The notes beneath the pieces were generated by a model, which was not told the DNA's origin, did no database searches, and saw nothing but the letters and a program-made list of their open reading frames with translations. Made by a program: the position numbers and the translations under genes. A stretch of DNA of 1,837 bases, from the NCBI RefSeq assembly GCF_003334355.1, contig NZ_QOWP01000079.1; one strand, given 5' to 3'. Below, in pieces: positions 87-1,064 of this stretch. The DNA is from Escherichia coli (GTDB taxonomy: Bacteria > Pseudomonadota > Gammaproteobacteria > Enterobacterales > Enterobacteriaceae). Position 1 is the first letter of the stretch. Each line of letters opens with the position of its first letter.

Positions 87-1064
87 ATGGGGGATACCCC
101 TGTCGACCTATCAAACACGGTAAAAGCTATCGACAATCAGATTGCCGTGTTAAGCCGCCCGGGCAAATCTCAGGATAGAGCCGCGGTAAAAGTCTTGCAG
201 CAATTTAAAGACGATATCACCAGCGGACCCAATGACCTGCGTCTGGCGAGAGAAAACAGAACTGACCTTCGAAAGCGGTTCATGAATTCAAACGAGACTG
301 TTGATAAAGACACGCTCCAGAAAGCCAGCGATATTGTCTACAAGGCATATACGCTGGATATGAGAAGGGCAGTAGCCCAGAAACTGGGTTCAGAAGAAGC
401 AGCCAATATGGCAAGGGTTGATCGCTCATGGTCTAAATTCAATGACATGATGGGAAGAACGCGCGTTCAAAAGGCAATAGCCAGCGGCAAGGCCACGCCT
501 GAGGATGTAACAAAACTCGTGTTTAGCCAAAGCCCATCAGAACGTTCTCAGCTTTACAGGCTTCTGGATGACAATGGTAGGCAAAACGCACGAGCAGCCA
601 TAGTTCAGAATGCTGTAGATAAGGCGACTGATCCGTCTGGAAATATCAGTGTTGAGAAGTTTATTAATGCGTTACACCGGAACAGGAAGCAATCAGCAAC
701 TTTCTTTAAAGGCGTGCACGGAAAGGAACTGGACGGCATTATTAAATACCTCAACGATACCAGACAGGCGGCAAAGGTTGACGGTCAGAAATTAAACAGC
801 CAGAAACTTTATGGCCTGCTGGTTGGTGGAGGCGCTATAAATGCGGCAGTTCTGGCGGGGATGCTGAAAACGGCTGCGTTTGTTGTTCCTGCTGCTGGTG
901 CTTTAGGCGGAGCAGCGAAGGCATACGAAAGCCCTGTTATACGAAATGCCTTATTACGTCTGGCAAATACGCCAAAAGGTAGCACAGCATATGACAGAGC
1001 GATCAGTACAGTCACACAATCACTGACCACAGCAGCACAAGCATCGCAAAAGGAAGCTCAATAA
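87..1064 (+). CDS. Hypothetical protein, 325 aa, hydrophilic N-terminal region and C-terminal Gly/Ala-rich hydrophobic hairpin (residues ~241-277); possibly 5'-truncated or promoter-disrupted by the adjacent IS
   Basis: Uninterrupted 978-nt ORF from ATG 87 to TAA 1062..1064 with protein-like composition throughout. In-frame stops upstream lie inside the IS. No canonical SD within 15 nt upstream of the ATG, which is only 9 bp from the IS terminus. By hand count, 12 of 23 Arg codons are AGA/AGG and there are 4 ATA Ile codons. No family assignment possible from sequence alone. Confidence 0.7.
   Translation: MGDTPVDLSNTVKAIDNQIAVLSRPGKSQDRAAVKVLQQFKDDITSGPNDLRLARENRTDLRKRFMNSNETVDKDTLQKASDIVYKAYTLDMRRAVAQKLGSEEAANMARVDRSWSKFNDMMGRTRVQKAIASGKATPEDVTKLVFSQSPSERSQLYRLLDDNGRQNARAAIVQNAVDKATDPSGNISVEKFINALHRNRKQSATFFKGVHGKELDGIIKYLNDTRQAAKVDGQKLNSQKLYGLLVGGGAINAAVLAGMLKTAAFVVPAAGALGGAAKAYESPVIRNALLRLANTPKGSTAYDRAISTVTQSLTTAAQASQKEAQ

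Follow-up and report, generated by a model that had tools for sequence, protein, structure and literature searches.

What kind of protein carries the Gly/Ala-rich apolar hairpin encoded in a 1,837-nucleotide stretch of Escherichia coli DNA (contig NZ_QOWP01000079.1; hereafter the window), and what might the hairpin do? A sequence-only reading had noticed the hairpin near the C-terminus of a 325-residue open reading frame (ORF; positions 87..1064, + strand), had likened it to membrane-inserting or pore-forming proteins, and could not place it in a named family. A family can be named: the intact form of the protein belongs, over its full length, to the P22 gp16-type ejection proteins (PHROG 770), and the window ORF is almost certainly a fragment of such a protein. 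Our preferred explanation, to which we assign a probability of roughly 0.55, is that gp16 proteins have a conserved charge-free Gly/Ala/Thr-rich hairpin near the C-terminus, that the segment is a lineage-specific form of it with unusual length and hydrophobicity, and that it may act at the membrane.

Positions 807-920 encode ORF residues 241-278 (LYGLLVGGGAINAAVLAGMLKTAAFVVPAAGALGGAAK) in frame with the ORF, where the sequence-only reading had located the hairpin, and the Gly/Ala-rich apolar segment itself covers residues 241-277 (807-917). It is opened by N-S-Q (795..803, + strand, as are all elements of the hairpin), the local form of a T-G-Q motif recognized from column statistics of the family alignment described below. 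Arm 1 (LYGLLVGGGAINAAVLAGML, residues 241-260, 807..866) has a Kyte-Doolittle (KD) hydropathy of 1.6 over 19 residues and a hydrophobic moment of 0.03. It is lengthened by a lineage-specific insertion of five residues, NAAVL (residues 252-256, 840..854), in alignment columns that are occupied in 1-6% of 140 sequences. A Lys-Thr turn (867..872) leads to arm 2 (AAFVVPAAGALGGAA, residues 263-277, 873..917), which has a hydrophobic moment of 0.11. The segment is followed by the closing motif K-A-Y-E-S-P-V-I-R-N-A-L-L-R-L-A-N-T-P-K-G-S (918..983), the best conserved stretch of the family. The two hydrophobic stretches that had been described on either side of Lys-Thr contain no charged residue, and the small-xxx-small motifs that had also been noticed are nine in number.

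The contrast in composition between the hairpin and the rest of the ORF is pronounced. Residues 241-280 are 5% charged and 50% Gly plus Ala, with a mean KD hydropathy of +1.27, whereas the charged fraction is 30% in residues 1-240 (KD -0.77) and 18% in residues 281-325 (KD -0.42). Both arms are uniformly apolar (mean Eisenberg hydrophobicity 0.69), and the best 19-residue window (KD19) reaches 1.71, just over the classical threshold of 1.6. An equally hydrophobic window of 40 residues occurred in 92 of 20,000 shuffles of the ORF. We reject chance composition as an explanation, and the stronger argument is not the shuffles but the preservation of this compositional feature in 139 divergent homologues. 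The ORF, however, is a fragment of a protein of 701 residues and not an otherwise hydrophilic whole protein.

The family assignment was made with the intact protein. Window positions 78..1064 are 100% identical to positions 12001-12987 of a locus from E. coli strain 510016 (L001), within the coding sequence of WP_097346595.1, a 701-residue protein (2106-nucleotide coding sequence) that is already annotated in RefSeq as 'injection protein'. The window ORF corresponds to residues 377-701 of this protein, and its start codon is the internal Met377. The 701-residue protein matches PHROG 770 ('DNA transfer protein') with E=2.7e-155, residues 19-700 aligning to positions 3-667 of the 668-position profile. 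In tblastn searches it shares 30% identity with P22 gene 16 (residues 210-683, E=7e-44), 32% with Sf6 gene 13 along the whole length (E=2e-81), and 66% with an ORF of the P22-like Escherichia phage N7; further matches are the 'DNA transfer protein gp16' genes of ST64T, g341c and APSE. A phmmer search of 1.84 billion representatives yielded 964 relatives at E≤1e-3 and 638 at E≤1e-10, and in most of the best 150 the domain lies at the C-terminus of a protein of 600-700 residues. Predicted structures in BFVD confirmed the phage family. The family is already known. P22 gp16 is packaged in the virion, released at infection and needed for DNA delivery (PMC8402733, PMC10883804).

The gene order of the intact loci (L001 and L012) agrees with this assignment. 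The upstream gene encodes a 488-residue 'phage DNA ejection protein', a homologue of gp20 according to phrog_917 and PF16928 (Inj_translocase), and ends where the 701-codon gene starts. This gp20-type gene is not in the window, where an insertion sequence (IS) occupies that part. For the Pfam family PF26808 (Phage_P22_gp16), a faint precomputed match was found on the 325-residue ORF only, and a Pfam-A scan of the 701-residue protein listed no family at E≤0.001, PF26808 included; either the library versions differ or this branch of gp16 proteins is too divergent for the model. NCBIfam and PADLOC searches gave no match.

The copy of the gene in the window is truncated. Positions 78..1064 (+ strand) hold the 3' remnant of the gene, codons 374-701 of 701. 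Alignment to the intact gene shows that everything 5' of codon ~373 has been replaced by IS sequence, so that the window holds no complete gp16-type coding sequence: in place of codons 1-373 stand the terminal 77 bases of an IS3-family, IS1203-like element (1..77, - strand), with the inverted-repeat end at nucleotide 77 and the start of the transposase orfA reading leftwards. Thousands of E. coli records hold IS ends with the annotation 'IS3-like element IS1203 family transposase' that match these 77 bases at 100% identity. The other end of the same IS type lies at 1763..1837 (+ strand), with the interior of the element running rightwards, and the corresponding E. coli sites are annotated as IS3 / IS1203 family transposase. 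Both window ends match at thousands of places in E. coli, and they correspond to the two ends of single IS copies of ~1.33 kb in Stx (Shiga toxin) phages (96% identity). Both IS1203-family termini face outwards at the ends of the window. Either IS copies stand on both sides of the 1,685-bp unique segment, or the contig is broken in repeats.

Positions 78-1762 are 99.9-100% identical to a chromosomal segment of the best-matching E. coli genomes, and at least 80% of the window is carried by 124 complete E. coli genomes. The left junction between IS and gene is identical in an independent Logan contig (L008), which is present in five samples; neither of the two IS/gene junctions was found in 5,426 complete E. 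coli genomes. Because the IS replaces the 5' half of the gene, the gp16-family assignment applies to a gene remnant. The gene in the window is dead, and the 325-residue ORF most likely yields no functional product.

To see how far the hairpin is a property of the family, we aligned the query with the top 139 phmmer representatives (140 sequences, mostly 25-40% identical to the query). The segment between the conserved T-G-Q and R-x-Y-E-S motifs is 35-50 residues long, with a median of 40. Its columns are 0-4% charged, except at one central position, where 63 of the 140 sequences have an acidic residue; this Asp/Glu column is that of ORF Gly258, a few residues before the Lys-Thr turn of the query. 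Neither arm contains a charged residue in 97 of the 140 sequences, and Gly, Ala, Ser and Thr together account for roughly half of the residues or more throughout the segment (0.46-0.70 per block of ten). The residues themselves vary (column entropy ~2.4-3.3 bits), and the flanks are much better conserved. The constraint thus acts on composition and length and not on sequence. An analysis of periodicity in column hydropathy, which could have distinguished helical from beta arms, gave a weak and uninformative signal.

Some positions in and around the segment are conserved. Of the 140 sequences, 137 have the Gly of T-G-Q, and at this position (ORF Ser238, 798-800) the query is the only sequence with Ser. 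Within arm 2, the Gly at G274 is conserved in 118 of 140. In the closing motif, the first position is Arg or Lys in 96%, and Tyr (131/140), Glu (134/140), Ser (132/140) and R286 (136/140) are conserved. What had been taken for a polar tail holds YES-x-x-[IV]-RN-x-L-x-RLA, the motif that is most conserved in the family. With a KD19 of 1.71, compared to a median of 1.33, the query ranks 11th of 140, and by the family landmarks its arms are 18 and 19 residues long, compared to medians of 13 and 17. The length of the query arms is partly due to the NAAVL insertion.

Comparison with P22 gp16 and Sf6 gp13 (PHROG 770, PF26808), taken as the nearest known proteins, shows both sides of this picture. 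The homology extends over essentially the whole length (30-32% identity), the gene follows that of the gp20 homologue, the prediction is all-helical, and the C-terminal landmarks T-G-Q, apolar segment, R-x-Y-E-S and RN-x-L-x-RLA are shared. In contrast, the query segment has ~37 uncharged residues where P22 and Sf6 have ~30, and a KD19 of 1.71 where they have 0.73 and 0.77. The query also has the rare five-residue insertion, Ser for the near-invariant Gly (P22 G532) and Lys-Thr in place of an acidic turn. Unlike the P22 and Sf6 genes, the window copy is truncated by an IS, and the intact copies stand beside a P4-like primase module and not in a complete P22-like virion cluster.

AlphaFold2 predictions set the segment apart from its surroundings. 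The model of the 701-residue protein (117 sequences) has a mean predicted local distance difference test score (pLDDT) of 81.9 and a predicted template modelling score (pTM) of 0.62, and is almost wholly helical; its pLDDT is mostly above 90 over residues 270-610 and drops below 50 at the heart of the hairpin (residues 623-643). For the 325-residue fragment, modelled with a different alignment of 100 sequences (pLDDT 84.5, pTM 0.70), residues 236-273 fall below 50 and residues 1-230 and 281-325 are mostly at 85-98. In both runs the hairpin thus has a pLDDT of 35-50 between flanks above 90, and in these models it looks like an excursion of ~38 residues out of a confidently predicted all-helical domain and back into it. 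The supposed polar tail is modelled within the folded domain at pLDDT 88-97, with the closing motif at 92-97 in the fragment model. Searches of the PDB by sequence (phmmer) and with the 117-sequence profile returned chance-level matches only (E≥0.08). In the structural check that had been proposed for the segment, AlphaFold2 leaves it unpacked, and Foldseek against the PDB returned no match at E≤0.001.

A second Gly/Ala-rich region with low confidence in AlphaFold2 (pLDDT 34-49) was observed outside the window, at residues 204-267 of the intact protein (L001:10882-12987). The most hydrophobic segments of P22 gp16 (residues 79-183, KD 1.0-1.2) lie in the corresponding N-terminal half, which is the part left sufficient for membrane binding by the truncation data of Perez, as quoted in PMC10883804.

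The position of the hairpin can be related to genetic data on superinfection exclusion. SieA is an integral inner-membrane exclusion protein, and escape of P22 from SieA requires the gp16 substitution P546S together with a change in gp20 at residues 338-350; adding gp16 G532W leads to near-full escape (Leavitt et al., PMC10883804). In alignments of 3 and of 117 sequences, G532 of P22 gp16 falls on the T-G-Q glycine at the entrance to the apolar segment (ORF Ser238), and P546 aligns to the centre of the segment (ORF 257-261), near the Lys-Thr turn. The authors of the SieA study did not tie the gp16 escape mutations to any membrane element (PMC10883804). The gp20 escape positions T338, T341, A348 and G350 lie in an uncharged Gly-rich stretch, FMTGMTGGAGNPAIGA (residues 335-351 of P22 gene 20, L002:1636-3051), and the composition of this stretch is reminiscent of the gp16 hairpin.

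Earlier work connects gp16 with the membrane. The trans-periplasmic conduit forms largely without gp16, which has been proposed to be located in the inner membrane, can bind to membranes and helps DNA to enter liposomes (PMC10883804); its association with membranes and liposomes goes back to Perez 2009, as quoted in PMC10883804 and PMC8954989. A 2022 review assigns putative C-terminal transmembrane helices to all gp16-like proteins that it lists, including those of P22, Sf6, HK620 and CUS-3 (PMC8954989).

We hypothesize that the hairpin acts at the inner membrane during DNA delivery. In a functional phage, the gp16-type protein would travel inside the virion in soluble form, be expelled through the tail on infection, and would then act where the gp7/gp20/gp16 DNA conduit ends at the cytoplasmic membrane. 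There the apolar hairpin may face, dip into or span the inner membrane, possibly with the hairpins of neighbouring gp16 copies zipped together via their small-xxx-small motifs. The hairpin could in this way help to open or anchor a passage for DNA, at a place where SieA-type proteins can interfere, perhaps by direct contact. We consider the odds even that the hairpin is a membrane-facing or membrane-inserting element.

Several observations weigh against such a role. Typical family arms of 13 and 17 residues are short for helices that span a bilayer, and the segments of P22 and Sf6 are short and weakly hydrophobic (KD19 0.73 and 0.77). In the query, the arms just reach the threshold of 1.6 (KD19 1.60-1.71), and arm 2 has only 15 apolar residues. 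Because the summed insertion energy on the Hessa scale is +2 to +3.4 kcal/mol (a crude estimate), the arms do not appear to be canonical (Sec-type) transmembrane helices. According to Perez et al. 2009, as quoted in PMC10883804, residues 476-609 of P22 gp16 are dispensable for membrane association in vitro, and these residues include the segment homologous to the hairpin. Part of the low pLDDT may come from the alignment, which is poor in a region so variable and rich in indels, and we found no experiment or solved structure that addresses the segment.

According to the main rival explanation, the segment never enters lipid and serves as a flexible, Gly/Ala-rich hinge or as an interface between proteins (gp16-gp20 or gp16-gp16). 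Short arms in most members of the family, variable sequence with conserved composition, and the reported dispensability of the P22 C-terminal region for membrane binding would all fit such a role. Flexible elements are also expected in ejection proteins, since they must unfold to traverse the tail (PMC8402733). Moreover, SieA escape needs joint changes in gp16 and gp20, and the location of the gp20 sites in a stretch that is likewise uncharged and Gly-rich suggests two matching surfaces. However, 140 divergent sequences keep ~40 residues almost free of charge, as one expects of segments that are buried or face lipid more than of linkers exposed to solvent, the very low hydrophobic moments indicate arms that are uniformly apolar and not amphipathic, and SieA itself resides in the inner membrane. 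A hinge or interface outside lipid is possible, but we regard it as less likely than the membrane role. It seems quite improbable that the segment is no more than the buried hydrophobic core of a globular helical protein, comparable to colicin pore domains when soluble, and has no separate role. In its favour, the putative transmembrane regions of T7 gp16 are globularly folded in the virion state (PMC8954989), and the remainder of the present domain is confidently predicted as helical. The packed flanks and unpacked hairpin in both AlphaFold2 models argue against a core; a length that varies between 35 and 50 residues, frequent indels and high column entropy are unusual for one, and a content of 42-50% Gly plus Ala would make the segment a poor core filler.

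Finally, the 325-residue ORF could be a stand-alone chromosomal membrane-active protein, such as a toxin, an effector or a holin-like factor. The same ORF is called in several assemblies, and PHROG 29117 (327 residues) matches it end to end. Yet every occurrence that we examined is a broken copy of the 701-codon gene, of which intact 2106-nucleotide versions are present in strains 510016 and CP53. In GCA_000194255.1 (L005:6874-8978) the gene has been broken independently by a deletion of one nucleotide in a T-run at nucleotide 951 (codon 317). The deletion splits it into two called ORFs of 325 residues each, the second identical to the window ORF, so that gene prediction yields one and the same ORF, with the internal Met as its start, as after the IS replacement at codon ~373. 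The exact match of PHROG 29117 to residues 377-701 is explained by broken copies that yield the same ORF. In addition, the start Met lies inside a helix (348-377) of the 701-residue AlphaFold2 model, and no toxin family in PADLOC, NCBIfam or Pfam matches. The 325-residue 'protein' is a by-product of pseudogenization; with every copy that we examined broken, we give an independent small membrane protein hardly any credence and reject it. Among these explanations, the membrane-associated gp16 hairpin is the one that we prefer.

Pore-forming domains of colicins A, E1 and Ia contain an Ala/Gly-rich, uncharged helical hairpin of ~35-40 residues within a soluble helical protein that reaches the inner membrane from the outside. 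The likeness of the present segment to the colicin hairpin is confined to composition and length. We found neither a profile match to the channel domain nor a match to its fold, a ten-helix bundle with a buried hairpin, and reject a colicin-type pore-forming domain. The suggestion of a membrane-inserting or pore-forming architecture thus survives in a restricted form: the protein is a phage protein with a hairpin that may face the membrane, and it is unrelated to colicins.

A functional analogue is gp16 of coliphage T7 (internal virion protein D), encoded by the last and largest gene of a three-gene ejection operon (PMC8954989). This protein is soluble and helical in the virion, and putative transmembrane regions refold to cross the inner membrane (PMC8954989). 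T7 gp16 is a 1318-residue protein with an N-terminal lytic transglycosylase, whereas no SLT domain is found in the present protein (no Pfam match), and homology between the two was not detected (hhalign with the 117-sequence profile, probability 1.6%). Among the BFVD structural relatives, proteins of 890-1020 residues carry the same helical module fused to an N-terminal LT_GEWL / SLT lytic transglycosylase, as T7 gp16 does; these predicted structures represent a T7-gp16-like architecture within the P22-gp16 fold family.

Downstream of the gp16 remnant, and separate from the hairpin protein, the window contains an ORF of 146 residues (1124..1564, - strand; annotated as WP_223201782.1) with an N-terminus that resembles a Sec signal (...LLFASFGANA/E). 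It matches phrog_2651 (unknown function), and no Pfam or PADLOC match was found. It shares ~30% identity with ORFs of temperate phages; those of the P22-like phages Emek and ST-35 come right after gene 16, and those of HK446, 434 and Sf6 (gene 38) are neighbours of the repressor. Although the ORF occupies the position that sieA has in P22, it has no similarity to P22 SieA. We consider it a candidate for a moron expressed in the lysogen.

A P4-like module comprising an integrase, an Icd-like protein and a TOPRIM/DUF927 primase immediately precedes the intact gp20-gp16 pair (loci L001:1-13000, from E. coli 510016, and L005). The junction between primase and gp20 is present in 120 of the 5,426 complete E. 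coli genomes. There is no gp7, portal or coat gene near the pair, and other virion genes are not in the island; a 57-residue ORF upstream of gp20 has no similarity to gp7. One variant of the island also carries an Abi_2 gene. The pair may represent ejection-protein genes carried as cargo of an island or satellite, or recombination debris.

Within the family, the query allele is unusual in three respects: its hairpin exceeds the others in length and hydrophobicity, the position of G532 is occupied by Ser, and the turn is not acidic. These oddities may be of interest for resistance to exclusion, but they might also be expected of a decaying gene. In a bolder version of the membrane hypothesis, the hairpin would enter the cytoplasmic membrane to open the DNA passage and would be the direct contact site of SieA-type exclusion proteins, the allele would be a natural exclusion-resistant variant from an arms race, and the gp20-gp16 pair might be functional cargo of the island. 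We speculate along these lines but think this combination unlikely.

As a genomic feature the locus is ordinary, and the window itself is of little weight, being a pseudogene fragment of an annotated phage injection protein bracketed by IS copies. What the analysis adds lies solely in the hypothesis that connects the SieA-escape sites with the apolar hairpin. At the level of the family the picture is modestly useful, since it bears on the passage of DNA of P22-like phages across the inner membrane and on the way in which SieA blocks it. Placing the SieA-escape mutations on a conserved uncharged hairpin provides a specific hypothesis, cheap to test, for where gp16 may meet the membrane and SieA.

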